A stretch of DNA of 64,000 bases from a virus (IMGVR_UViG_3300005326_000042:1-64000); one strand, 5' to 3'; counted from the first letter of the stretch, positions 349-57,509 are shown. Numbers and translations are program-made. Notes: generated by a model not told the origin, from the letters alone.

Positions 349-560
349 TCTTCTGCCTCCATAGAATTAGTATCTGGCTTAGTATTTAAAACTTCCTCAA
401 CCTCGTTGCCGAGGAACCACGTTAGATCATGAATCGAACTTAGAAGTTTAAACCAATTTTCTTTATTATTTAACCGGCTAGAAGATTCAATTTCCTCCAG
501 CCTCTTAAGTGTTCTTTCAATCATATCTAACCCGTTCTCATCAAACTTATATTCCTTCAT
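345..560 (-). CDS. hypothetical protein
   Basis: Track ORF with 4-nt overlaps to both neighbours (operon-like). Confidence 0.4.
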   Translation of the reverse strand: MKEYKFDENGLDMIERTLKRLEEIESSSRLNNKENWFKLLSSIHDLTWFLGNEVEEVLNTKPDTNSMEAEE

Positions 561-1308
561 TCTTTAGCACCTCTTTTGGATTCATATTCCATATCTCCTT
601 CTGATTACCAAACTCATCTTTCAAATACCTTCCATTACATCTAGGAGACCTTCGAATATACTTCGCGAGGAAATCGATCTTTTCTTCCCTTTCGACTCTG
701 TACACAACTCCCTCTGTTCTCTCCAGAGCACCGTGGAATCCAAATTCTCCAAGAAGATCTAGAGATTCTTCAATAGATAATGGGCCTCCTATATGGAGCA
801 ACTTGGGTCTTGGGAACCAGCCTGGAAGTCTGAAATTGAAGGTTTCGTAGTTAAGTCTATTTGGGATACCTTTAATTGATACTCCGCTTCGCTGCGTGTC
901 TATCATGATGTCGAACGGAACAAACGGTATGTGCTCCAACTTATAGAGAGTTCCGTGGGCCTGCATCATCCATTCTCCGCAAATTCTTTCTCCTTCTTCA
1001 AGAAAATCAAATCTATCATAATTCTGCATTACCCATTGATGGAAAATTTGATGTTGAGTCCGAGGAGAATCTGTTGCTCTATATCCTGCGCGAATTAGAG
1101 GGATTAATTCTCCGTTAATCTTTGCAACAGAAACGTTTGATCCGTCGAGTTTTTCCGATATCGATATTACATCTTTCTTATCTCTCGGTTTCAAGGTGCA
1201 AATTCTGTGCTGCCCTTCTCCAACATACTTATCTCCATCTGCATTAGAACCCAATAGATGAGGAATAGAACCATAGGATCTACAAAGAAGCGGTTTTATT
1301 TTCTTCAT
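547..1308 (-). CDS. ATP-dependent RNA ligase-like nucleotidyltransferase (Rnl2-like, NTase domain only)
   Basis: Covalent nucleotidyltransferase motif I KxDG (SEKLDGSN), motif IV EGVVYRV, motif V K-x-R near C-terminus; 253 aa. Confidence 0.6.
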   Translation of the reverse strand: MKKIKPLLCRSYGSIPHLLGSNADGDKYVGEGQHRICTLKPRDKKDVISISEKLDGSNVSVAKINGELIPLIRAGYRATDSPRTQHQIFHQWVMQNYDRFDFLEEGERICGEWMMQAHGTLYKLEHIPFVPFDIMIDTQRSGVSIKGIPNRLNYETFNFRLPGWFPRPKLLHIGGPLSIEESLDLLGEFGFHGALERTEGVVYRVEREEKIDFLAKYIRRSPRCNGRYLKDEFGNQKEIWNMNPKEVLKNEGI

Positions 1309-6367: not shown

Positions 6368-6796
6368 TCACCTTAGAGAATCCAAACATTCATCCATCAT
6401 TTTCGCGGCCTCTTCTAAACTCATTTCTCTATTTTGAGACATTCCACGGCCTAAATATTTGTACCACGAAACGAAAAATTCATGTCCATTCCAACGGAAA
6501 TTGTATGTTTGTGGGACTTCTTCATTCCAACTATAAGCATAAACTTCAAAGACTTTGTTTTCGTAAGAAGAACCTGTATTTCTAAAGGGGTTGTCATCAT
6601 CTCCAAACCTAAGAACAAATCTTGTTTCGATTGCCTCTAAAATTGATTCAACATACCAAGTACACTCTAGTTCTTGATGCGGCTGACCCCAAGCTAATTG
6701 CCCCAATTCTGGTTCGTAGGGTTTTGATTTCTTCGACTCTTCTTCAATTTGCTTCCAAATTTCTAAATCTTCCAGAAAATCTTCTTCTTGAGACAT
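6368..6796 (-). CDS. hypothetical acidic protein
   Basis: Track ORF. Confidence 0.4.
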   Translation of the reverse strand: MSQEEDFLEDLEIWKQIEEESKKSKPYEPELGQLAWGQPHQELECTWYVESILEAIETRFVLRFGDDDNPFRNTGSSYENKVFEVYAYSWNEEVPQTYNFRWNGHEFFVSWYKYLGRGMSQNREMSLEEAAKMMDECLDSLR

Positions 6797-6800
6797 ATAA

Positions 6801-7526
6801 TTACCTCAAAGTTCTTTCATAATCCTCAAATCTCAACTTTGCAATTATAGATCTATCTGATAATCTTGCTACAATTCCTTCTGGGCGACCAAGGGCTCCA
6901 CCATCGAGGGCTGCGTTGGTTATATGAATCATGCTCTTCAACCAATCATGGGTTTCTTTGACATCAATAGGCGGATGTCCAAGATTTATTCGTGGGGTTA
7001 GCTGGAATCCCGAATCCAAGAGTTGTGCCTCGCCATAGAACGTTTGGCCTCCATTGTCTCTCCATGTTGCTATTCTCTCAACGGGCATCTCCAAGATTTC
7101 TTTCCATTCGGGAATAGCTACGATATCAAATAACCTGTGCCCAACCGTCTTACTTCCCGTATATTGTTTGCTATTCTTGGTTACGTTTCCGCCGTATACT
7201 TCGAAATAATATACAGTTAGAATACTAGAAGGCTTGATCCGTTCCGCTATTGGTTTTAGAGCATCGACTATTCCAAGTTGCGGGTTGCCTATCATATCCC
7301 CTTTGGCATATAACAATTCTTCGCGGCTGCCAATGATGTATAGTCCGTCTGGCATCACGATAATTCGCCCATTGACGCCATCGATTTTTTCAGTCAGAAT
7401 CGCTGGGCTATCAAAGGGCACTTGAACTTCATTTACCAGTTTTCCGCGTTCGCCCATTTTGTGATAGGTTAGTATGCTCGGATACTTTGTCATAGAATTT
7501 AATTTGTTTAAATCCACCTTAATCAC
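6801..7526 (-). CDS. ATP-dependent RNA ligase-like nucleotidyltransferase, second paralog
   Basis: Motif I TEKIDGVNGR (KxDG), motif IV PEGIVAR, motif V K-L-R; 241 aa, NTase domain only. Confidence 0.55.
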   Translation of the reverse strand: MIKVDLNKLNSMTKYPSILTYHKMGERGKLVNEVQVPFDSPAILTEKIDGVNGRIIVMPDGLYIIGSREELLYAKGDMIGNPQLGIVDALKPIAERIKPSSILTVYYFEVYGGNVTKNSKQYTGSKTVGHRLFDIVAIPEWKEILEMPVERIATWRDNGGQTFYGEAQLLDSGFQLTPRINLGHPPIDVKETHDWLKSMIHITNAALDGGALGRPEGIVARLSDRSIIAKLRFEDYERTLR

Positions 7527-7786
7527 CCCAACTTAATCTCCAACTCTTTCGCAACAATAAAATAGCCATTTTTAATTGTAAATTTGGAGTCCAAAATTTC
7601 TCTCGAACTTTGGAACATCCTAGCATCGTTTGCTCTGATTTCGTATCTAATAATAGAGTTAAACGGCACAAATGCCAAGTTATAACCCTCTGGTATATCG
7701 GGGATCAATTGACGAAGCTTTTCTGGAATTTTCTTGTGTTCCCAGGATTGGATGAAGATGTTACTCATCTCCTCCACCTCTCGCAA
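7523..7786 (-). CDS. hypothetical protein
   Basis: Track ORF. Confidence 0.4.
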   Translation of the reverse strand: MREVEEMSNIFIQSWEHKKIPEKLRQLIPDIPEGYNLAFVPFNSIIRYEIRANDARMFQSSREILDSKFTIKNGYFIVAKELEIKLG

Positions 7787-8169
7787 ACATCGTCTTCCTT
7801 CGTAGTCGGATTTATCAGTCCATAATCCATGTGATCATCTATGCTGCAAACAGATCTTTGGGAATTATACTCTTTGCAGTACTTGCAATGTCTTTTCTCA
7901 TATGCAGGACACCATCCGCTGTCTTTCATAAAATACGTATTCCCATCAGAACTATGAACTTCACAGCTTCCGTGTTCATAAATAAGTTTTGAATCCTCAT
8001 TAAAATTCTTACACCCGCAACATTTCTCGTTTTGAATATACCTTGCAATAGGTTGCGCAATATTTTTAAGGTAGAGGTGATCAATAGCTGGATAATATTG
8101 GTCTAGATTTAATTTCTCAAGAATTTTAAAAATTAGATCTAGATCGGAGTAGGGATATTCAAGCTTCAT
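7765..8169 (-). CDS. Cys-rich hypothetical protein
   Basis: Multiple CxxC pairs. Confidence 0.4.
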   Translation of the reverse strand: MKLEYPYSDLDLIFKILEKLNLDQYYPAIDHLYLKNIAQPIARYIQNEKCCGCKNFNEDSKLIYEHGSCEVHSSDGNTYFMKDSGWCPAYEKRHCKYCKEYNSQRSVCSIDDHMDYGLINPTTKEDDVCERWRR

Positions 8170-16680: not shown

Positions 16681-17646
16681 TTAGCTTTCGTTAGGATTAT
16701 AGATACAATCGGTTGCTTTCTTGTCGGGCCTAAGATTTTTTATCCTCGGATGTCTGAAGCGGCCCGTTTTAGGTATTCTTTCCTGTGCGGTAATTTCTAT
16801 GACTGTACCGATGTATTTCTCTTTGTTGTTGGACATGTCTTCTCTAAGGGCGTCACTCATCCCTGAGCAGTACCCGAATGATATTAATTTACCACTAAAA
16901 TATTGTCCAAACTCAACGGCCCCCACCCATCCGAGTTCTGCGAACTTCGAAATTGACTCAGTGCCATCGACTTTGGTAGTCATTTCTTTGGCATCTTTAA
17001 AATTTGTAACCACTACGTCCCATGTGGCAGATCGCTTCGCCTTGACCCATCCAGTTTTCTTGCCATAAGGTGCTGTGGTGTCTTTTAAAATTATTCCTTC
17101 GCCCCCGCTCTCAAGAACTTCTTCGTATAAAGATTTCTTGTCGCCTTTTACGATTTCTGTTATTGAAACATGATTTAAATCTAAATCTTCAAAGTACCCT
17201 TCGAGGACAGCCCTCCTATAAGACCAAGGCTTATCTCGGATATCCTGACCCTTATTCATCAAAACGTCAAATATTACGTAGTTCAACCATCCATTTTGAC
17301 GTTGAAACTCAATTGCGCGGGATGGGAGTGCGCCAGTTATCTTAGTTACATCCATGCTGTTGGAACCGAATACAAGCTCCCCATCGAAGATTGTTCCAGA
17401 AAAATCCCCATCTAGGTTATTATCTACGAAAATATTTTTCAAATGTGGGAAATTTTCTGTTTTTTCTGTGAATAAATTTGTCTTCTTAGATATGTGCCTG
17501 CTTGTGAACCTGTTTCCTCCAATACCGCAATGCATGAGTGCTCTGCTTCCATCGTATTTGATTTCACCAACATATTGCGAAGAATTCCACATACTTTCTT
17601 TCAATTTGCCGCGTGCCTGTGCGGGTTCGATTTGTAAGATTTCCAT
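16681..17646 (-). CDS. ATP-dependent DNA ligase (T7-like, compact)
   Basis: Motif I EIKYDGSR, motif IV EGIILKD, motif V WVKAKR; 321 aa. Confidence 0.7.
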   Translation of the reverse strand: MEILQIEPAQARGKLKESMWNSSQYVGEIKYDGSRALMHCGIGGNRFTSRHISKKTNLFTEKTENFPHLKNIFVDNNLDGDFSGTIFDGELVFGSNSMDVTKITGALPSRAIEFQRQNGWLNYVIFDVLMNKGQDIRDKPWSYRRAVLEGYFEDLDLNHVSITEIVKGDKKSLYEEVLESGGEGIILKDTTAPYGKKTGWVKAKRSATWDVVVTNFKDAKEMTTKVDGTESISKFAELGWVGAVEFGQYFSGKLISFGYCSGMSDALREDMSNNKEKYIGTVIEITAQERIPKTGRFRHPRIKNLRPDKKATDCIYNPNES

Positions 17647-17649
17647 AAA

Positions 17650-18972
17650 TTATTTCTCCTCTAATTTTCGCTTCTTTAGTTCCTTGTATTCTTCCTTAGT
17701 GTAATAAGATCTCCCTGAGTATATATAGTTTATGGATGTGTGGAAATTTTCTTCCCATCGTTGTCGGTCTCCATGCGTCGTTTTACTATGACACTTTTTA
17801 CAAAGTGGAACAAACATTACAATTTTATCATCACAACACGCATTTTTATCATATTCAACATGATGTACTGATAGTTCGCAGCCGTTCTCTTCTTTGCTTG
17901 TTCCACACATAAAACATTCGTTCTCAAAGAAATCTCTTACTCTCCGCCTCAAATCATTATTAAACTTAGGACAATATGGCTCAAAAGAGAGACCACCTTT
18001 CCAATTTGGGTTTTGTTCTCCTTTCTTTCCATACATTCCATTCTTTTCGCCCTTGTTAGATTCTGATATTTTAGCTTTAGTTTCCTCTGTATGACGTTTG
18101 CCAAAGAAAGTTGATTCTTCACCCCTTTTACCATAAAGGGGGTGCTCTTCACCTTTTCTCCTAAAAGCGGGGTCTTCCCTATTCTTTTGAGAAATAGACA
18201 TTTTCTTTTTAGTCTCGTCAGAAAACTTTTTCCCATAATTTGGAGATTTTTCACCACTTAAAACTTCCGAAAGTTTCTTTCTTGTTTCTTCTGGTAAATG
18301 TTTTCCAAACCAATGGTTTTTCTCACCTTTGTTCGCTTCAGAAATTTTTCTACGGGCTTCTGGAGAAGGGGAGTTACCTTTATTCTTCTCAGAAATTGTT
18401 TTCTTTGTTTCTTCTGTATGATGTTTTCCATACATACCGTTATTTTCTCCAGAATGGGCAATTGACATCTTTACTTTAGTTTCCTCACTCGCTTTCATTC
18501 CTCTATGGGCTTCCGCAATCTTCTCTCTATTTTCTGGATGACTCATTCTTTCTTTCGCTTTTTCAGAAAGTTTTTCTTTGGTTTCATCAGAAAGGTGTTT
18601 TCCAAAACGTGGATTTTCTTCTCCTTTTCTACCAAACATTGGATTATTTTCACCTTTATTAAGTTCTGCAAGTTTAGCTTTAGTTTCTTCCGTATGATGT
18701 TTCCCAGTCATTGGGCTTGGAACCCCATACATGGGATTATTTTCACCAGATAATTTCTGAGAAATGATTTCTTTTGTTTCTGGATGTTCTTGGTAATATT
18801 TTATTAAGGCTTCAGAAATCTTTCTTCCAATTTCTTTTGCGGGTTTTTTACCAAATAAGGGGTGATCCTTGCCTCTTCGTATCTTGTTTGGATTATCTTT
18901 GAAAAACTTCTTTTTAGATTCTGAAAGCTTTTTCTTAGATTCCTCACTCATCTTTTGTCCTTTTCTCATTCC
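17650..18972 (-). CDS. HNH homing endonuclease with multiple NUMOD3 DNA-binding repeats
   Basis: Repeated GKHHTEETK/GK.H.EE.K NUMOD3-like units; C-terminal HNH (HHVEYD...CKKCH); likely ATG at 18972 (track GTG at 18984). Confidence 0.65.
   Translation of the reverse strand, partial: GMRKGQKMSEESKKKLSESKKKFFKDNPNKIRRGKDHPLFGKKPAKEIGRKISEALIKYYQEHPETKEIISQKLSGENNPMYGVPSPMTGKHHTEETKAKLAELNKGENNPMFGRKGEENPRFGKHLSDETKEKLSEKAKERMSHPENREKIAEAHRGMKASEETKVKMSIAHSGENNGMYGKHHTEETKKTISEKNKGNSPSPEARRKISEANKGEKNHWFGKHLPEETRKKLSEVLSGEKSPNYGKKFSDETKKKMSISQKNREDPAFRRKGEEHPLYGKRGEESTFFGKRHTEETKAKISESNKGEKNGMYGKKGEQNPNWKGGLSFEPYCPKFNNDLRRRVRDFFENECFMCGTSKEENGCELSVHHVEYDKNACCDDKIVMFVPLCKKCHSKTTHGDRQRWEENFHTSINYIYSGRSYYTKEEYKELKKRKLEEK
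17990..18780 (-). repeat. intragenic tandem repeats encoding NUMOD3 units
   Basis: Periodic DNA repeats produce spurious ORFs in other frames (17949..18257, 18258..18461, 18505..18753). Confidence 0.5.
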
Positions 18973-19085
18973 TTCACCCTCCACGTTCCTTGGTCAAATC
19001 TGACCTTACATCGAGGGCAAGCTTTCGGATCGGCAACACGCGGAACCCATTTGTATAAACACTTAGGACATACTTTTTCTGTCAT
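18969..19085 (-). CDS. small zinc-ribbon protein, translationally coupled to HNH gene
   Basis: 38 aa; CPKC...CPRC; stop overlaps HNH ATG (ATGA); below track size cutoff. Confidence 0.4.
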
Positions 19086-20146: not shown

Positions 20147-21082
20147 TTATGCCTTCACTGGCACAACCGCTGGGTTTATGGCAGAATCGGCCATTGCAAC
20201 TATACTGGCTCCCTCTGGAACAAACACCTTAGTATTGTTGGCAAACGTCTTTTCCGTAGCTTCAAGCCTTCGGAGTTCTACCGCAGGCCCCTTGAAGGTT
20301 TCGTTTGCTGCATCGTTGACCTTCTTAATGGCTCCAGCCTTTGCGTCTGCCTCGATTGTGATTGCTTGAGCCTTACCTTCAGCCTTCTTAATTTCCGCTC
20401 TCTTCTCACCATCTGCTTTAGTCTCAACAGCAGTAGCGAAGTCAATCGCAGCCCTCTTTTCACTTTCAGCCTTAACGATATTATTCATTGCAGCCTGAAC
20501 ATCTTTCGGAGCGTCAATTTCGGCAATCTCACAACGTACAATCTCTATGCCCCAATCGGTGGTTTCTTTTGCAATAATTGTTTGTAGATCGATATTTAAT
20601 TTACTTCTCTGAGAATTCGCTTCCTTTAGGGTGAGTCCTCCAATTACATTTCTCAGAGTTGTTTGGGCAAGAGAAACTATCTGATACTCCACATCATTAA
20701 CATTATACTGAGAATTCTTTACACTTTCCTTATCGGCCTTAATCTTGTAATAAACCTGAGCACTTACACCAGCATTCAGATTGTCTCCAGTAATAACTTC
20801 CTGCCTATCGCAAGTTACCATTGTTTCCGTAATATCTACCAAATAGAATCTTTCTACAATTGGAATGCAAACTACCAATCCAGATTCTGCATACCGACTG
20901 AATTTTCCAAACCTCTCAATCACACATCTCTGAGTTGGTCTCACTTGCGCTACCGAATTCTTAAAAACAACTGCAACTACGGCCAGTAGCACAATAAATA
21001 CTACTGTACTTGCAACAAAACTTAAAATATCTCCCATAAAATCACCTACTATCTCTCTGTTCTCTATATTCTTCCCATTCAT
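20147..21082 (-). CDS. SPFH/band-7 (stomatin/prohibitin-like) membrane protein
   Basis: N-terminal TM helix then SPFH core (VRPTQRCVIERFGK...VDITE...TGDNL) and Ala/Lys/Glu coiled-coil tail. Confidence 0.65.
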   Translation of the reverse strand: MNGKNIENREIVGDFMGDILSFVASTVVFIVLLAVVAVVFKNSVAQVRPTQRCVIERFGKFSRYAESGLVVCIPIVERFYLVDITETMVTCDRQEVITGDNLNAGVSAQVYYKIKADKESVKNSQYNVNDVEYQIVSLAQTTLRNVIGGLTLKEANSQRSKLNIDLQTIIAKETTDWGIEIVRCEIAEIDAPKDVQAAMNNIVKAESEKRAAIDFATAVETKADGEKRAEIKKAEGKAQAITIEADAKAGAIKKVNDAANETFKGPAVELRRLEATEKTFANNTKVFVPEGASIVAMADSAINPAVVPVKA

Positions 21083-23986: not shown

Positions 23987-24177
23987 GGGAAATCAACTCT
24001 TAAGAAAAGATTTAATTTACATATTCGGGCGGATACCACATCTCCACTTTTCCTTTCACATTAATTAACTTCAACATATCTTCAATTGCGCCCGCGATTT
24101 CTGCGGCCTTTTCTTCATCAACTATCTGCTCAAGTTCTATAGAAATTCTATCTATTTGTGTCATTTAAAATATCTCC

Positions 24178-24414
24178 TTAACGCTCAGCTTCGCTAGGCA
24201 TCCGTACCCAAGTCCTAATTCTCGCTCCACTTGACAGAGTTTTGTTCACGTACATTGCCTCTCCATTCTTCCGCGCCGTCCACAATCTTTTAGAAACGGT
24301 TCTGGGATGAATACCTAATTTATCAGAAACCTCTTTTGCTCTTGGAGCATCTTCTGCGGTTTCTGGGAGAAAATTAACTATTTGTTCGCGAACAGTAATT
24401 GTGTCGTTTTGCAT
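24178..24414 (-). CDS. winged-helix transcriptional regulator
   Basis: LGIHPRTVSKRLWTARKNGEA HTH-like. Confidence 0.45.
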   Translation of the reverse strand: MQNDTITVREQIVNFLPETAEDAPRAKEVSDKLGIHPRTVSKRLWTARKNGEAMYVNKTLSSGARIRTWVRMPSEAER

Positions 24415-24415
24415 C

Positions 24416-25084
24416 TTAAAGTTTTCCCTCCCATTCCATCTTTCTTATCTTATAAAGATAATCCCTGAAAGGCTTCTCGTCTATTTCTAAAGGAAACGGG
24501 CTATCTTCAAACGCCTGATCAAGAGCGTCCAAGCACTTATTTACGTCTAATTCGCTTACGTCCAAGTTCACAATAGTCTCGCAAGGCTTAAAATTAAACT
24601 CCCATTTTGTTAGAAGATCCACTCCAAATAGAGCAGTCCTCGCGGCGGTTCTGTAACCTTTTCCACCAGCTAATCTAGGTCTCTTGGTTTCATCCAGCTT
24701 TTGACTTCCCGCCATGCCTTTTATTGCATAGTAATACTTTTTGGATGGATTATTAAGAACAATTTGTCTCAATTTTCTGAGCAGACCATAGTTCGAGGTA
24801 TTATCTTCTATAACTATAGAACTCGTCACATGCCACAAATAGTTTATGTTTCCTCTGAGGAGCTGATTTATTAGTTGTCCTATCTCAACGTAAGAGCAAT
24901 CACAATCTACTCCGTCTTTTAGAAAATGGGTTTGTGCCCATGTTTCCGGAATCCTATATCCAGCCAAAATATTCTTTGTTGGAACTACTCGACACGTAGA
25001 ATAATCGTGATCCGATATTCCCGACTTAAACATTCCCCACATAGAAGAACCATGTTCTGTAGTCCAGAGATCTTTAGGTTCCAT
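24416..25084 (-). CDS. Pol-beta-superfamily nucleotidyltransferase
   Basis: GS-x11-DHD signature (HGSSMWGMFKSGISDHD) near N-terminus; 222 aa. Confidence 0.5.
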   Translation of the reverse strand: MEPKDLWTTEHGSSMWGMFKSGISDHDYSTCRVVPTKNILAGYRIPETWAQTHFLKDGVDCDCSYVEIGQLINQLLRGNINYLWHVTSSIVIEDNTSNYGLLRKLRQIVLNNPSKKYYYAIKGMAGSQKLDETKRPRLAGGKGYRTAARTALFGVDLLTKWEFNFKPCETIVNLDVSELDVNKCLDALDQAFEDSPFPLEIDEKPFRDYLYKIRKMEWEGKL

Positions 25085-25399
25085 TCAGATAACCCCTTAA
25101 ATACTCTTTCCCTTCATCCAGAGTTCTAAACTTCTCATCTATTTGGGCTTCGTACATAGTTTTAAGTATATAACTGTAGTTGGGTCCAGGTTCTATTCCC
25201 AGTTCCATAAGGTGTCTACCCATAATGATAGGTTTGGTTTCATTCTTGATGTCATCGTAGATATCTAAAACATCCAGTAACCTGTTGTATTCTGGTAGGT
25301 CGTCTATTTTTGGTCCGCTTCTGGAAACTTGTGTTTTACGATTGCGCCGCTCGCATGACCATCGAGGTCACTTGCATGAAAAAAGCACTTTATTGCCAT
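25085..25399 (-). pseudogene. interrupted small gene (frameshift at A5 run): DHH-like N-terminal motif plus tRNA-NTase C-terminal-like motif
   Basis: Frame A MAIKCFFHASDLDGHASGAIV... stops after 33 codons at CAAAAATAG; -1 frame continues ...IIMGRHLMELGIEPGPNYSYIL...EGKEYLRGYL with no start of its own. Confidence 0.35.
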
Positions 25400-25400
25400 T

Positions 25401-25784
25401 TTAATTCATCTCCCCCAACCGTTTCTCTAAAATTTTCTCAAAATCTTCCACTCCATACTTGCCGTTCTCTACGTAGATAAACCCTTCGGCCAGCAACCGA
25501 TTTAGAGAGTTAGATATGGTTTCCCTCAGATAGATCTTTCCGAGAACAGATACAAGTTCTTTATGTGATATATCTGGATTTTCCTTAATGAAATCGTATA
25601 CATCACAATCGATGTCTACGGATTTCAAAATCGGATTTCTAGGACTGTAGATGCCATTATTATTACAGTACTTCGCAACGGTATCCGCAGCTACTCCAAA
25701 ATCTCGCGCGATATCTTCGTAGGTTCTGATTTGAAGTTGTTCTTCCAGCCAGATTAAGTCTTTGTTAAAAAGAGTTTGTTTCAT
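25401..25784 (-). CDS. HTH DNA-binding protein
   Basis: TYEDIARDFGVAADTVAKY HTH resembling N-termini of the HNH paralogs. Confidence 0.45.
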   Translation of the reverse strand: MKQTLFNKDLIWLEEQLQIRTYEDIARDFGVAADTVAKYCNNNGIYSPRNPILKSVDIDCDVYDFIKENPDISHKELVSVLGKIYLRETISNSLNRLLAEGFIYVENGKYGVEDFEKILEKRLGEMN

Positions 25785-25805
25785 GATTTAAAAGGTCTCC
25801 TAAAA

Positions 25806-26153
25806 TTAAATTATTCCATTTTTCTGAAGCGGTTTATAAACTCCTTTTCTAACTTCCTCGCGATCAGATTCTTTCTCACTCTCGGTTAAGTCTTTATAAT
25901 CGGTTTCAATTTGATGAGACCATCGTTCTACAGCCCACGCGGGAATAGTTGCAGTTCCGTCTGAGTTCATAATACATTTTGAGAAAAGATGTTTCATCCA
26001 GTGGGACCAACGAATATGCTCCTCATCCGCGAGGTCTTCCATTAGAGACTTAGACGTTAGAAGCCTTAATTGATATTCCATATCGGAGATTTTCTTGTTT
26101 TTTTCTCTTAATACCGATCCAGGTATTTCATAAAAATTTTCAGTTTCTTCCAT
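25806..26153 (-). CDS. hypothetical protein
   Basis: Track ORF. Confidence 0.4.
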   Translation of the reverse strand: MEETENFYEIPGSVLREKNKKISDMEYQLRLLTSKSLMEDLADEEHIRWSHWMKHLFSKCIMNSDGTATIPAWAVERWSHQIETDYKDLTESEKESDREEVRKGVYKPLQKNGII

Positions 26154-29416: not shown

Positions 29417-29917
29417 TCACACCAGCTTCAAACTCTTCGTAATCTTCTTCAACTCATCGGTCTGTTTAAACCCAATACAAGTCATCGTCCCTAGAGGAAC
29501 TTCGGTAAGTCCTGCATCTTTTATGTAGACAACATCATCAAGAGTTGCAAGTTCCTTAAATGTCTCATGGTCTGCCTTAAGAATTATTGCTCTTCCAAGA
29601 CAGTTATATTTGTCCGCGAGCTGCATTGCTATATGGGAAATTTGTGCAGCAATTTTTCCTTTAGACATCTTCAAGCTTTCGTCGATTACGTAGATGAAGG
29701 TTGTGGAGAGGTCAACTTGTCTTGATATCATATTATCTTCAGAATAACGGTGTCTATGACAAAAACAAGTTCCAGCTATTGCGCCGCAGATTCCACAACG
29801 AAAAATATCGTGGTGGCCCGCGAATCCAAAATGTTCTTGACAATAAAAGGCGTTTCTATCTGAGTCAAATGTTCCAGGTTTACCACATTTAACGCATTTA
29901 TTATTTTCGTTATTCAT
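29417..29917 (-). CDS. zinc-finger fused to peptidyl-tRNA hydrolase PTH2 (archaeal/eukaryal type)
   Basis: N-terminal CVKCG...CQEH...CGICG...CFCHRH; then PTH2 core TFIYVIDESLKMSKGKIAAQISHIA and ...DAGLTEVPLGTMTCIGF. Confidence 0.65.
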   Translation of the reverse strand: MNNENNKCVKCGKPGTFDSDRNAFYCQEHFGFAGHHDIFRCGICGAIAGTCFCHRHRYSEDNMISRQVDLSTTFIYVIDESLKMSKGKIAAQISHIAMQLADKYNCLGRAIILKADHETFKELATLDDVVYIKDAGLTEVPLGTMTCIGFKQTDELKKITKSLKLV

Positions 29918-32554: not shown

Positions 32555-35335
32555 ATGTCTGAAGAAAAGAAAATTGCAGGTGCGGCAAACACCTGCCAAG
32601 AGGATTTTATTCCTGATAATAGTGATGCTTTACAAGTAGATAAATCTTTCGGTCAAAAGGTTCCAAAGATTGAGAGACCCGCTACCGAGGAAACTATTAA
32701 ACACTACAAGAACCCCAAAGTAATGGCGGTTGTCAGAGAATTTTGCGAAGACCCAAATGGTTGGAGAGGTTGTAACGCCGGAACACATTGGTATAGATCC
32801 ACTCAAAACGGGAAAGTAAGGCTTAGGAATTTTCTAGACGATTATATAGATAGTATTGAACACAATAGAGTTCTGTATGCTACATTAGATTTCTTTGAGA
32901 AAAACTTAAAATCCAAAGACGAAGCTATTAAACCAGGAAGCAACAAACCTATACATCCAATAGGAAGTCTTGAAAATTTAATTTCTTATACTTTAACCTG
33001 TGATATTGACTTAAAAGGATCTGTAGATGATCCTTCTTCAAAACTCGCTTTAGAGTGTGCAGCACAATTTTTTGTAGACTACTTGAAAAAGCGCGGAGTT
33101 TTTAGAAGCGTATACACTCTTTTTAGTGGAAACGGCATATATATTTTAATCCACCATAATCTCTTTGCAGTAGAAAATAGAAATTATGAGCAGAGAGAAA
33201 AATTCTTTGGATCTTTAATTACAGCATATAATATGTTAATTGATAAAATTGAAACAGAGTTTTTCAAAATTCATCCAGAATATAAAGAATTAATAGCGTT
33301 TGATACTGTAAACAATAAGAAAAGAAAATTAAAATGTATTTTTAGTATTCACGCAAAGAAAAATTATGTAGTAATTCCATTAGATCCATCTAATATTAAA
33401 ATTGATTTGGAAAAAGCTAAATTACCTTTATCAGAAGAAGTAATTTTTCTTGGAGAAAAATGGTACAAAGATTTTCATCTCGGAGAAAAAGAAGTTCTCC
33501 TCTCTGTTCTAAAAGAATATATAGATTTAGACCGAAAGAGAAATTCTCACAAGAGAGGAGAGAAAGGAGAAAACGAGAAGGAATTACCTCCAAGAAGATG
33601 TGAACAACCCATTCTCACAGATGATATGCCTCCTTGTATTCAAACAATCATATCTGATCTACAACCAAAAGGTGCTACAGGAGCACTAACTTTTCTGGCA
33701 AGCTATCTATACGAAGTTGGATGGTCCGAAGAAGAGGCTTTTAAGCTCTGGAGTTCTCTAGCCGACAAGGTATGGAAGGATTACAGATACTTTGATGAAC
33801 ATTTCGGAGAACGCTGGACTCCATCTTGCGAAAAATTAAATAATGGTTTCCAATATCCCCGACCAGGAATCGGACATTACTGTAAGAAAGACAAATTCTG
33901 TAAACATTGTTCTAGACCGACAGAATATACACTGAAAGTCCCGAATTTCTCTTGGAACGATAAGGGTAATGGCGAAAGAATGGCATTTTATTTTGGAGAC
34001 ACGATAAAATATTGCGCACAATCGAGAGGATGGTATGTGTGGGATGGAAAGAAATGGTCCGCAGACGAGACGAAAGAGTTTATGAAATATGCAAAGAAGG
34101 TTGTCAGAAATATGTATAACGAGGCTTCAGAAATAGAAAACGATGATCTTAGAAAAAAGTTTGTAAAATGGATTCATTCAAAATGCGAAACTGCGGTAGG
34201 CATAAAACATATGGTAGAAATGGCAGAATCTGAGGATGAGATTTCCATTAGCCTAAAACAAATATATTCTGAATCAAAATATTTTAATCTAGAAAATGGG
34301 GTTCTGAATACAGAAAACCTAGAGATACTTCCACACGATCCATCTAGACTTATTACAATGATATCGAAGGTGGCCTACGACCCAAATGCGGATTGCCCAA
34401 GATGGAAAGAAACAATTAAATTAGTATTTGAAGAAAAAGAAAGTTTAATGAAATATTTCCAGAGAGTTTGTGGCTATATTTTAACTGGAAGACCAATTGA
34501 GCAGGCATTTTTCTTCTTATATGGAGAGAATGGAAAGAATGGAAAATCCACTTTGATGAATGCAATTCTTTATCTCATGGGAGATTATGGATTGAAAGCG
34601 GAAATTAAATCTTTCTTGGAGAGCGGAAATAACATGTCCATCAGAAACGATTTAGCTAGAATGGCAGGAAAGAGATTTGTTTGGGCATCAGAACCAGATG
34701 AAGGAAAGAAATATTCTATGGAAATTTTAAAACAAATCACAGGAAGCGAGCCTATTACTTGCCGTTTTCTTCACCAAGAATATTTTGAATATTTGCCTCA
34801 ATTCAGTCTTTTTATTTCTGCAAACAACAGACCAACCATTTCTGAAAAGAGCGATGCGGCTTGGAGAAGGGTTCAGAGCATTCCTTTTAATAAAACAATT
34901 CCAGAAGAAATGAGAGATAAAAACATAGATATATGTCTACAAGCCGAAGCTTCGGGAATTTTTAATTGGATGCTAGAGGGACTTAGAGAATATTATAAAA
35001 TCGGATTAAATTCTCCTTCAGAGGTATTAGCATCAATTAAAGAATATAAGGAAGATATGAACTCATTTGAGAACTTTATAAGAGACTGCTGCGTTACAAA
35101 AGACGCTAAATCAATTGCAATATTAAATTCTGAACTTTACGAGAACTATAAGTCATACTGTGAAGACCTCGGAATTGTTAGCAAAGATTCATTAAAATCT
35201 TTTATAAAACAGATGACTAAGCTCGAAGAAGAAGGAAAGGTTTCCCGAATTACTGTACATAAACAAACCGGATGGTTGGGGATTCACCTGAAAGATGACA
35301 TGGAGAGAAACACAATTGAAATTAGAAATCCTTAA
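32555..35335 (+). CDS. primase-helicase 1 (D5/P4-alpha-like SF3 NTPase)
   Basis: 926 aa; Walker A YGENGKNGKST, Walker B region, large N-terminal primase-like region; SD GAGGT. Confidence 0.65.
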   Translation: MSEEKKIAGAANTCQEDFIPDNSDALQVDKSFGQKVPKIERPATEETIKHYKNPKVMAVVREFCEDPNGWRGCNAGTHWYRSTQNGKVRLRNFLDDYIDSIEHNRVLYATLDFFEKNLKSKDEAIKPGSNKPIHPIGSLENLISYTLTCDIDLKGSVDDPSSKLALECAAQFFVDYLKKRGVFRSVYTLFSGNGIYILIHHNLFAVENRNYEQREKFFGSLITAYNMLIDKIETEFFKIHPEYKELIAFDTVNNKKRKLKCIFSIHAKKNYVVIPLDPSNIKIDLEKAKLPLSEEVIFLGEKWYKDFHLGEKEVLLSVLKEYIDLDRKRNSHKRGEKGENEKELPPRRCEQPILTDDMPPCIQTIISDLQPKGATGALTFLASYLYEVGWSEEEAFKLWSSLADKVWKDYRYFDEHFGERWTPSCEKLNNGFQYPRPGIGHYCKKDKFCKHCSRPTEYTLKVPNFSWNDKGNGERMAFYFGDTIKYCAQSRGWYVWDGKKWSADETKEFMKYAKKVVRNMYNEASEIENDDLRKKFVKWIHSKCETAVGIKHMVEMAESEDEISISLKQIYSESKYFNLENGVLNTENLEILPHDPSRLITMISKVAYDPNADCPRWKETIKLVFEEKESLMKYFQRVCGYILTGRPIEQAFFFLYGENGKNGKSTLMNAILYLMGDYGLKAEIKSFLESGNNMSIRNDLARMAGKRFVWASEPDEGKKYSMEILKQITGSEPITCRFLHQEYFEYLPQFSLFISANNRPTISEKSDAAWRRVQSIPFNKTIPEEMRDKNIDICLQAEASGIFNWMLEGLREYYKIGLNSPSEVLASIKEYKEDMNSFENFIRDCCVTKDAKSIAILNSELYENYKSYCEDLGIVSKDSLKSFIKQMTKLEEEGKVSRITVHKQTGWLGIHLKDDMERNTIEIRNP

Positions 35336-41303: not shown

Positions 41304-42125
41304 ATGACAAATAAAGCTTTACTTGCGGGAATCAATGCCTATATGCAATCTCCGCTTAGAGGTTGCATCAACGATGTACTTGATGTAGAGAACTATTTAC
41401 TAGGAAAGAATTTCCAGTGTACCAAACTTCTCGACTCTTCCGCCACCAAACCCAATATTCTAAATGGACTTAACACACTTATAAACGGAAGCCACGCAGG
41501 AGATGTATTGGTGTGGTATTTTAGCGGCCACGGATCTTACATTTTAGATAATAATGGAGATGAAACAGACGATCAATATGATGAGTGCTTGATTTCTTAT
41601 GACTACTTCACAAACGGAAATTTCATTCGTGATGATGATTTAGCTGAAATATTTACAAGAATTCCAGAAGGAGTTTTAGTTGAGTGTATCCATGACTCCT
41701 GCTTTTCAGGAGATTCCACAAAACTATTTAATGATCTAAATTCAAATACCCGTTTTGTAGATATCGATACTAATTCTATAGATTTAAAATCTTCTGCTTC
41801 AAAATATATTCCTATCCAGCTTTCTAGACCTAAAAAGAAAGTTGTGAAAATTGGAAGGATAGGACATAAAGTCAGTAATATTACCATGAACCACATCTTA
41901 TCAAGCGCCTGTGGTGAAACTCAGACTTCAAGCGAGGTTCGGGTAAACGGTCAATATCGCGGAATTTTTACATACCTGCTTACAAGAAGACTCAGACTTT
42001 CTCCAACTATGAGCCGATCTGGAGTAATAAGTAATGTTCGAGCAAACCTTGCTGCACTAGGGTTGTCACAAATACCTATGTTAGAGTGTATCGATAGTGA
42101 AAAATTAGAGCCTTATTTCTCATAA
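41304..42125 (+). CDS. caspase-like cysteine peptidase (peptidase C14 / metacaspase family)
   Basis: Catalytic His in VLVWYFSGHGS and catalytic Cys in IHDSCFSGDS in caspase order (His before Cys); N-terminal KALLAGINAY; SD GAGGT. Confidence 0.65.
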   Translation: MTNKALLAGINAYMQSPLRGCINDVLDVENYLLGKNFQCTKLLDSSATKPNILNGLNTLINGSHAGDVLVWYFSGHGSYILDNNGDETDDQYDECLISYDYFTNGNFIRDDDLAEIFTRIPEGVLVECIHDSCFSGDSTKLFNDLNSNTRFVDIDTNSIDLKSSASKYIPIQLSRPKKKVVKIGRIGHKVSNITMNHILSSACGETQTSSEVRVNGQYRGIFTYLLTRRLRLSPTMSRSGVISNVRANLAALGLSQIPMLECIDSEKLEPYFS

Positions 42126-56402: not shown

Positions 56403-57509
56403 TTAATCCTTCTTGGTATTTATACTTTCCGCTTCCTCGCGACTTGTCACACAATAGGACATCACATTAGACCCGCCAGATGTCCATCTTCGCCTTCTGG
56501 GAATAGTAGATGGAGACGTAGTAAACGGCTGAACCGCGTATGCACTTACCTCATAAGGTTGCGACCAAGGATCTGTATCATCCTTCTCGGACCCAAAATC
56601 CTCTGGATTTGTTATAGGGACGACCTTTTCAAGAATCTCTCTTGTTGTTCCATCAACCTTTTCGGGAACCAACTTCTTAGTCTCTACCTTCTCATCACTG
56701 GGATACTCAATAAAATCGCGACAACATTTTCTATCACATGGGCCAAACCTTATATTCCTAAATCCAGGTTCCCAGATATTCGCAAGAGATTCTTTGAGCA
56801 GATTTCCCCAAGTATATAGACCAGTTGAATTGTAAGACCTCTCCGACAGACAGGTAATTACATCTCCATTATAGAGAATAGAACAAGATCTTATTCCAGC
56901 AGAACACGTGTGTTCAGACTGTAGATTGTCCGCGAGAACATAACTTACATTCTTCAGGCTTCGTATCTTGTCTCTAAGATACTTAATTCCATCTGCCAAA
57001 AGTTGATATTCTGATCCCATAGTAAGCTGAATCTGCCAGAGCTTAAAGTTCTTCGCGATTTCCGCCAGTTTATCAAATTCCCAGATATTGTGAGACCCGA
57101 AGTTTGTAACTATGGTTATATTATCGCAATATTCTGTTGTCGTAACAACGTGGTCTTCTTTATAGTCTGAAGGGAAATTAACCGATAATCCAATGCAGTA
57201 AACTTTATCCCAAGGAATAAATTTATCAAATATTCCACCGTTTGATATAATTTTAACCTTACATCCCGAATTATCTAGTATCTCTATTACTTGAGATAAC
57301 AACTCATCTGATAGAGTCGAAGGTTCTCCTCCCGTAAGAGTCACTTCATTCACTTTATATTCAACGATTCGTTCTGCGATTTTTAGAACTTGGTCGTCTG
57401 ACAAAGGTTCATTTTTAGTTATATCCTTAGAGCCGCAGTACTTACAGTTTTTGTTACACTTGGGTGTAATTTCCCAAAGTATTTCTTCTAGTTTTAAAAT
57501 AGGTTGCAT
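56403..57509 (-). CDS. radical SAM enzyme with C-terminal SPASM/twitch-like Cys cluster
   Basis: CNKNCKYCG (CxxxCxxC) at residues 18-26; later CSAGIRSC...C...C.RKCC cluster; 368 aa with low-complexity tail. Confidence 0.6.
   Translation of the reverse strand: MQPILKLEEILWEITPKCNKNCKYCGSKDITKNEPLSDDQVLKIAERIVEYKVNEVTLTGGEPSTLSDELLSQVIEILDNSGCKVKIISNGGIFDKFIPWDKVYCIGLSVNFPSDYKEDHVVTTTEYCDNITIVTNFGSHNIWEFDKLAEIAKNFKLWQIQLTMGSEYQLLADGIKYLRDKIRSLKNVSYVLADNLQSEHTCSAGIRSCSILYNGDVITCLSERSYNSTGLYTWGNLLKESLANIWEPGFRNIRFGPCDRKCCRDFIEYPSDEKVETKKLVPEKVDGTTREILEKVVPITNPEDFGSEKDDTDPWSQPYEVSAYAVQPFTTSPSTIPRRRRWTSGGSNVMSYCVTSREEAESINTKKD

Follow-up and report, generated by a model that had tools for sequence, protein, structure and literature searches.

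In a large virus, analysed here over a 64,000-nt stretch of its DNA (the window), the region between positions 24,416 and 25,399 most probably consists of an intact RlaP-family gene preceded by the scar of a deletion that spanned a DHH phosphoesterase gene and a gene for a CCA-adding enzyme. Judging by homology, the functional element of the locus is the RlaP-family enzyme, whereas the 316-nt interval upstream of it is composed of two unrelated gene ends. The remaining quarter or so of the probability is shared by an ancestral single fusion gene, an exapted CCA-derived tail, real −1 frameshifting and anything else. What the locus shows is gene decay of an ordinary kind, next to a new, divergent member of a known family; it opens no new mechanism. 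Every gene in the region lies on the minus strand, and the features are, in the direction of transcription:

25401..25784, minus strand: HTH protein of 127 aa, the first gene in the direction of transcription
25304..25399, minus strand: 31-codon ORF, MAIKCFFHASDLDGHASGAIVKHKFPEADQK, the 5′ remnant of a DHH/DHHA1 phosphoesterase gene
25310..25318, minus strand: putative deletion junction between DHH-derived and CCA-derived sequence, GC/GGACCA
25307..25311, minus strand: A5 run, read as Lys-Ile (AAA ATA) in the CCA-tail frame, while the DHH frame runs into TAG
25074..25316, minus strand: 3′ remnant (∼77–80 codons) of a class II CCA-adding-type tRNA nucleotidyltransferase gene
25074..25223, minus strand: 49-aa ORF from an internal ATG, inside the CCA remnant and reported by gene callers
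24416..25084, minus strand: intact nucleotidyltransferase of 222 aa, of a divergent RlaP (PF10127) clade

Two gene ends upstream of the nucleotidyltransferase

The first-pass annotation of this DNA had described an upstream ORF of 33 aa reminiscent of DHH motifs I and II. The ORF proved to be 31 aa long and stops, as described there, at a TAG within CAAAAATAG (TAG at 25304..25306). Its codons 1–28 correspond to the start of a DHH/DHHA1 phosphoesterase, with the ATG and a Shine-Dalgarno-like motif retained; GGGGGAG lies upstream of the ATG, which is found one base past the stop codon of the HTH gene. Positions 3–28 align with residues 2–27 of the protein P0209 at 85% identity (E 9.7e-6), and the DHH homology spans 25399 to ∼25317. 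P0209 is a stand-alone protein of 302 aa with its own stop codon, Pfam DHH and DHHA1 domains and the motifs WIDHH and GGGGH, and it was the sole match of the N-terminal piece among the 150 matches listed in a phmmer search of 1.84 billion representative sequences. The N-terminus of phrog_4771, annotated as DHH phosphoesterase, also resembles this piece (E 0.033). The P0209 gene is followed by a PIF1 helicase gene and not by a CCA gene.

Compared with DHH/DHHA1 phosphoesterases (NrnA-like; phrog_4771), the first 28 codons are alike, including motif I (H-x-S-D-L-D-G), but motifs II–IV, among them DHH itself, and the DHHA1 GGGH motif are missing, and ∼9% of the gene is left. Motif I (D11, D13) is the only DHH motif in the window, where the WIDHH and GGGGH of P0209 have no counterpart. 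The likeness to DHH proteins proposed in the first pass is borne out. Codons 29–31 and the TAG are the beginning of the next, CCA-derived fragment read out of frame.

This second fragment, which is shifted by −1 against the frame of the DHH remnant, comprises the end of the HD region and the tail domain. Its frame is open from the junction to 25074, through SGPKIDDLPEYN and IIMGRHLMELGIEPGPNY to GYLNGT and a stop codon; read onward without a stop, it closes with SGPKIDDLPEYNRLLDVLDIYDDIKNETKPIIMGRHLMELGIEPGPNYSYILKTMYEAQIDEKFRTLDEGKEYLRGYLNGT and the stop at 25074. The first-pass annotation had compared it to the C-terminus of CCA-adding enzymes, and our searches agree. The tail piece matches residues 446–500 of 525 of the Aquifex A-adding enzyme (chain 3wfo_A, E 1.8e-4), i.e., the last ∼55 modelled residues of that chain. 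A phmmer search of the 1.84 billion representatives with a joined 108-aa query returned 403 matches at E≤1e-3, of which 150 were listed; here, the tail piece (positions 31–108) aligns with the final 70–80 residues of many proteins of 430–470 aa. E-values reach about 1e-10 for C-termini of ∼440-aa proteins with PolyA_pol and HD domains, and the best match of any length is a protein of 138 aa (E 2e-12). The full-length relatives begin directly at the PolyA_pol head, followed by PolyA_pol_RNAbd and HD (in some cases also tRNA_NucTran2_2), and are CCA-adding-type class II tRNA nucleotidyltransferases.

Only the end of such a protein is encoded in the window. A weak match to tRNA_NucTran2_2 (profile positions 107–139) is the only Pfam hit of the CCA remnant, tblastn with full-length relatives covers only their residues ∼345 to 430, and neither Pfam nor tblastn detects in the remnant a PolyA_pol head with its catalytic carboxylates. 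In comparison to HD-containing class II CCA- and A-adding enzymes (those of the E. coli Cca type and that of Aquifex aeolicus, PDB 3WFO), the 77-codon remnant is homologous to the C-terminal tail, from just past HKAD..GR to the stop, but head, neck, body and the catalytic HD parts (∼365 of ∼440 codons) are missing, as is a start codon. For an estimate of its decay, we built a tail HMM on 21 full-length CCA-type proteins, using the last 110 residues of each. The 78-residue fragment of the window scored 89.3 bits, compared to 61–121 bits for 22 held-out real tails, and since this score falls within the range of real tails, the fragment is not visibly decayed. With its 77 open codons, such an undecayed fragment suggests a recent deletion, although selection on the fragment would fit equally well.

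The two homologies abut within ∼8 nt (25310..25318) and together cover the entire 316-nt interval. In nucleotide sequence, the window resembles the P0209 gene from its start codon up to CCAGAAGC, and the similarity ends at ∼25317. The CCA homology starts at SGPK/IDD, which is aligned with G-R-K-x-I-D, just behind HKAD in the full-length proteins, and the window residues ahead of SGPK (ERRNRKTQVSR) do not match HKAD. A search for repeats revealed nothing relevant to the junction, and no Rfam family matched 24000..26000 at E≤1.

These observations can be accommodated by a single event. The ancestor would have carried a DHH/DHHA1 gene (∼300 codons) and a CCA-adding-type gene (∼440 codons) between the HTH and RlaP genes, both in the same orientation and perhaps separated by further genes. 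The loss of ∼2 kb or more in one deletion would have joined codon ∼28 of the DHH gene out of frame to codon ∼365 of the CCA gene, removing the 3′ nine-tenths of the former and the 5′ five-sixths of the latter. Ribosomes starting at the retained DHH ribosome-binding site and ATG would then synthesize a 31-aa peptide and halt at the TAG; the frame and the stop codon are observed, and translation is predicted from them. The 3′ end of the CCA gene may have survived because it carries the Shine-Dalgarno-like AAGGGG of the RlaP gene and overlaps it by 11 nt. The ancestral gene order is reconstructed rather than observed, since no relative with an intact DHH-CCA-RlaP arrangement was found.

The start of one gene and the end of another are also the leftovers expected from an internal deletion in one long gene, so that the locus could alternatively derive from a single DHH-CCA nucleotidyltransferase fusion gene that lost its interior, and there would never have been two genes. 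Fusions of DHH-CBS-DHHA1 domains to CCA- or A-adding enzymes do exist in some bacteria, e.g., Aquifex and Thermotoga. However, the sole close relative of the N-terminal piece is the stand-alone P0209, the tail relatives of ∼440 aa have the PolyA_pol head first, and both pieces occurred together in none of the 150 matches listed from the 1.84 billion representatives. A local re-search gave the same result, and its few matches with two stretches are tandem tails or a repetitive artefact. We regard the single fusion gene as unlikely. The decaying fusion gene named in the first-pass annotation was nevertheless the closest of its options: there is decay, but the evidence favours a deletion across two genes.

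Stop codon, A5 run and internal start codon

Another option of that annotation was that a frameshift or a homopolymer error breaks up a single small gene. This does not hold: the interval contains parts of two gene families, their junction lies upstream of the A5 run, and three assemblies are identical. The exact nucleotidyltransferase protein is also encoded on contigs of ENA ERZ27247099 and of JGI 3300030493 and 3300029959, and these three independent assemblies come from different samples. Each matches the window with 100% identity (over 6669, 5848 and 3758 nt), with the A5 run and the stop codon unchanged. Some sequencing platforms are prone to errors in homopolymers; because the three assemblies agree base for base, an error in the A5 run that would conceal one continuous small gene is excluded for practical purposes, with a residual probability that is close to nil. 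Likewise, since all available copies are identical, they are silent on selection and on the age of the deletion.

The position of the A5 run adds to this. Both the run and the TAG belong to CCA-derived sequence, so removal of the TAG would rebuild no natural protein, and a changed length of the run would merely fuse two unrelated fragments. Such a product would combine DHH motif I, devoid of the DHH and DHHA1 motifs, with a CCA tail devoid of head, neck, body and HD. In line with this, searches with the repaired product of 106–108 aa (106 aa in the first-pass annotation, which had proposed such a search) found no counterpart in the databases: a word-index search of 5.8 billion proteins with the 108-aa product returned nothing at E≤0.01, and pattern scans detected it neither in IMG/VR nor in GTDB genomes, revealed no close relative, and hit in JGI metagenomes only one ordinary GC-rich CCA gene (L025).

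A functional protein of 106 aa could in principle also arise by programmed −1 frameshifting at C-CAA-AAA-TAG. Here, tRNA-Lys on AAA would find a perfect match in the −1 AAA, the zero-frame codon that follows is a stop, which can promote slippage, and the −1 frame is open to its end. However, the site does not conform to the X-XXY-YYZ heptamer: at −1, only AAA re-pairs, and CAA shifted to CCA mispairs. The 98 nt counted from the site on (25312 down to 25215, minus strand) fold with an MFE of −17.2 kcal/mol (z −1.69); 12 of 200 shuffled sequences fold at least as well, and the structure is thus not significant. Moreover, the two halves are ends of unrelated genes, their product would consist of DHH motif I and a CCA tail alone, and the exhaustive search of 1.84 billion representatives (150 matches listed) revealed no more of such a protein than did the word-index search and the contigs of IMG/VR, JGI and GTDB. 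The two-frame architecture itself was found in none of the protein searches, the IMG/VR, JGI or GTDB contigs or the RlaP loci of relatives. Programmed frameshifting is therefore hardly to be expected, and the locus is probably not a recoding site.

The absence of a start codon in the −1 frame, also noted in the first pass, applies to one part of the frame: there is no ATG, GTG or TTG before 25223, but the internal ATG at this position opens the 49-aa ORF. This ORF might encode a small tRNA-binding helper of the RlaP enzyme, or act as an upstream ORF that couples translation to RlaP, with the CCA tail exapted after the deletion. The family-like score of the tail, comparable to the tails of intact enzymes, fits this possibility, as does the overlap of 11 nt between the stop of the tail ORF and the start of the RlaP gene; in relatives, too, an upstream ORF often overlaps RlaP (e.g., L005 and L010). 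Yet a Shine-Dalgarno-like motif was not found within 20 nt of the internal ATG, although 40 of the 57 long ORFs in the window (70%) have one at ≤20 nt from the start, compared to 18% of random positions, and the RlaP gene has its AAGGGG inside the CCA remnant. The CCA homology also extends ∼28 codons upstream of the internal ATG, over a stretch without a start codon, and the tail ORF is present at none of the RlaP loci of relatives.

Short tail-only ORFs are in themselves frequent, as 47 of the 150 best tail matches are ≤120 aa long, which also speaks for exaptation. Both of those inspected, however, adjoin CCA genes. On a 947-kb cellular contig (L014), a 51-aa tail ORF directly follows a truncated CCA gene of 410 aa, and on a phage-like contig (L015), an extra tail of 62 aa is located after a complete CCA gene of 458 aa and an opposite-strand ORF of 187 aa. 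These two look like split or duplicated gene ends and not like members of an independent family. We consider exaptation of the 49-aa ORF somewhat less probable than an ancestral fusion gene. A shade less probable again is that the CCA remnant was newly exapted as a tRNA-binding module, expressed either with the internal ATG as its start or through a −1 slip of tRNA-Lys at the AAA before the TAG, that works with RlaP or is coupled to it; if so, a new accessory subunit would have been caught arising from a deletion scar. Under the preferred reading, a deletion across two genes, the 31-aa and 49-aa ORFs, which public collections already list as proteins (P0093 and P0090), deserve to be flagged as remnants of a DHH and a CCA gene instead of new small proteins or a recoding site.

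A divergent member of the RlaP family

The 222-aa protein encoded by 24416..25084 carries the Pol-beta signature G12-S13-x11-D25-x-D27 (D25-H-D27). In an alignment of 30 sequences (the window protein and 29 homologues), no variation is seen at G12, S13, S24, D25, D27 and E67, and little at D62 (≥90% conserved). Because these residues do not vary among the 30 aligned homologues, the GS-x11-DxD motif is not a chance match, and the first-pass assignment to the Pol-beta nucleotidyltransferases is confirmed.

By itself, the protein reaches only 14.5 bits (E 0.03) against Pfam RlaP, below the gathering cut-off of 23 bits, and scanned as a member of the alignment it has no RlaP match at E≤0.01; NCBIfam gave no match, while among PHROGs, phrog_388, annotated as nucleotidyltransferase, matches it with E 3.7e-7. 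A database search returned 89 homologues with E-values from 2.6e-19 to 2.8e-86, the self-match left out, and most of them have a precomputed PF10127 annotation. Of the 30 aligned members, 27 individually match RlaP, with a best E of 3.3e-16. The homologues fall into a closer clade of 51–63% identity, found on metagenomic, virus-like contigs, and a larger set of 35–42% identity, nearly all of which are annotated as PF10127. Since most of its homologues carry PF10127, we file the protein by transitive homology as a divergent member of the RlaP family, although it stays below the cut-off of the family HMM itself.

In GTDB, 40 of the 43 loci with a homologue belong to Methanotrichaceae/Methanothrix or to other Methanosarcinales MAGs; the three exceptions are Syntrophomonas, Methanoregula and a Chlorobiaceae MAG. 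The locus adds a divergent RlaP clade that chromosomes of Methanotrichaceae have in common with a group of large, uncultured viruses, and a recently characterised RNA-repair family is extended in this way to archaeal virus-host systems. The motif reads SDHD in the viral clade and SDID in the archaeal one.

RlaP enzymes add one to two NMPs onto the 3′-OH of RNA, as reported for PfRlaP and PaRlaP; T4 NrdC.11 belongs to the same family, and three aspartates are described as strictly conserved (PMC12776372). With PfRlaP/PaRlaP and NrdC.11, the window enzyme shares the Pol-beta GS...DxD core and a C-terminal helical domain. Its size is also typical of the family (∼220–250 aa), homologues at 35–63% identity carry PF10127, and its virus likewise encodes RNA ligases; it differs in its score, which is under the family cut-off. 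Family membership therefore predicts an RNA-repair activity for the 222-aa enzyme.

An AlphaFold (AF2) model of the protein (pLDDT 92.6, pTM 0.89) consists of a beta-rich N-terminal segment (residues 4–94) followed by helices (101–218). Among predicted viral structures, it resembles phage nucleotidyltransferases with TM scores of 0.75–0.79, including those of the Bacillus phages Mater, G and BCD7. The best matches among solved structures in the PDB are weak and correspond to kanamycin nucleotidyltransferase ANT(4′) and Hailong HalB; the PfRlaP crystal structure was not among the matches, and a profile search of PDB sequences returned nothing meaningful. ANT(4′) and HalB are alike in their two-domain architecture and length, but with TM ∼0.35–0.42, an rmsd >11 Å and 10–14% identity, there is no relationship at the sequence level. 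None of the neighbouring genes that were scanned encodes a HalA-like partner. An identity as a CBASS or antibiotic nucleotidyltransferase was thus rejected, as the structural likeness is weak (TM ∼0.4) and the sequence homology is to RlaP; the affiliation check proposed in the first pass accordingly came out on the side of RlaP.

Genomic context and relatives

The window belongs to a large virus, and Pfam matches among its ORFs include genes for DNA replication, repair and remodelling, comprising NrdD, a D5-type primase-helicase with a PriL-like region, PrimPol, an SNF2 helicase, a DNA ligase and a NUMOD3 protein. RNA- and tRNA-related genes encode two RNA_ligase-domain proteins and PTH2, nucleotide metabolism is represented by ThyA-like and DCD/dUTPase genes, and further matches include a caspase-like peptidase, radical SAM/SPASM and SPFH. 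The window contains no tRNA genes. A Cas8a match reported by PADLOC was at chance level, and five ORFs of exactly 142 aa, considered as a possible paralogue family, are unrelated to each other.

The RNA or tRNA repair link drawn in the first-pass annotation is sustained by the membership of the enzyme in the RlaP family and by the PTH2 gene, which is located 4 kb upstream of the RlaP gene. The two RNA_ligase-domain genes (547..1308 and 6801..7526) are at least 17 kb away from it, and no RNA ligase gene was identified within ∼17 kb.

Nucleotide searches with 4 kb (megablast) and with the nucleotidyltransferase (tblastn) found nothing in 50,697 phage records, to which the tail had two weak matches only. 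A scan of IMG/VR with the nucleotidyltransferase sequence alone was likewise negative, and a profile scan yielded 7 loci. In six relatives with a 56–63% identical RlaP, the genes upstream are unrelated and include no DHH or CCA fragment. The HTH protein has no homologue besides itself, and the ancestor could thus not be reconstructed from synteny. At the two Methanothrix loci inspected, the RlaP homologue is flanked by deoxyhypusine synthase and a flavoprotein and is not part of an RtcB or ligase operon.

Among the RNA-repair nucleotidyltransferases of jumbo phages, RlaP and CCA-adding enzymes are reported to be the two found most often, and DHH phosphodiesterases to occur as occasional counter-defence genes (PMC7824862). 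On a distant 127-kb IMG/VR contig (L021), an RNA ligase, RlaP and a PolyA_pol-type nucleotidyltransferase are encoded within 4.6 kb, with RlaP one gene away from the RNA ligase. By analogy with this contig and the jumbo-phage survey, a former CCA gene beside RlaP is plausible, and the CCA remnant hints that the virus lineage may once have held a fuller tRNA-repair set comprising both a CCA-adding enzyme and RlaP.

RlaP in Methanothrix and the host of the virus

Judging by the homologues found in GTDB genomes (loci L026-L068), the divergent RlaP clade to which the window's nucleotidyltransferase belongs occurs, among cellular organisms, almost solely in Methanotrichaceae/Methanothrix. At both Methanothrix chromosomal loci inspected, a deoxyhypusine synthase gene has its end overlapped by the RlaP-clade gene, and a gene for a PF02441 flavoprotein comes next:

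L016 5060-7323, RlaP-clade context, Methanothrix chromosome
L017 81-2344, RlaP-clade context, Methanothrix chromosome

The RlaP family takes its name from its association with RNA ligase, and the lack of an RNA-ligase operon in these contexts (n=2) is thus unusual.

The window looks like part of a large virus whose host is inferred to be an archaeon, because its RlaP is nearest to those of Methanotrichaceae and because it also encodes the following proteins:

29417..29917, PTH2
32555..35335, D5 primase-helicase with a PriL-like region

Methanothrix is possibly the host. Genes for a proteasome subunit, for prefoldin and for a TROVE (Ro60-like) protein occur on contigs that carry the closest relatives of the window's RlaP (L005, L007 and L008).

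RlaP neighbourhoods on other contigs

On a 127-kb IMG/VR contig (L021 3308-7887), the gene for a 438-aa RNA_ligase-domain protein is followed by a 118-aa ORF, RlaP, three ORFs of 226, 87 and 95 aa with no Pfam hit among those scanned, and the gene for a PolyA_pol protein. The latter is short (245 aa) and comprises the head and RNA-binding parts, without HD or tail domains. This cluster looks like a compact RNA-repair module. In L009, whose RlaP is 62% identical to that of the window, the region is flanked by two TnpB/Cas12f-like (OrfB_IS605) genes (97-1242 and 6507-7922).

CCA-tail ORFs outside the window

Separate ORFs for the tail domain of CCA-adding-type enzymes were also found elsewhere. 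On a phage-like contig (L015 987-3189), a complete 458-aa CCA-type gene is followed by an opposite-strand 187-aa ORF and then by a 62-aa ORF, which is a second, separate copy of the tail domain and may be either what remains of another CCA gene or a trace left by a mobile insertion. On a 947-kb cellular contig (L014 1742-3156), gene calling divides the CCA-type gene into a product of 410 aa and a tail ORF of 51 aa, and the gene is either split or frameshifted; this tail ORF and the window's 49-aa ORF both open with MGRHL. Of the 150 best tail-domain matches (from 403 phmmer matches to the joined 108-aa sequence), about a third (47) are proteins of at most 120 aa, so that public protein collections commonly include orphan ORFs of the CCA tail. 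They may represent genes cut short at contig ends, split genes or genuine small proteins.

Other genes of the virus

Further genes of the window include:

16681..17646, ATP-dependent DNA ligase
17650..18984 (-), 444-aa protein with six NUMOD3 motifs (Pfam E 1.7e-68)
20147..21082 (-), SPFH/Band 7 protein
41304..42125 (+), caspase-like Peptidase_C14 protein
56403..57509 (-), radical SAM/SPASM protein

The NUMOD3 protein is probably kin to homing endonucleases, and the ligase gene lies directly downstream of its gene.
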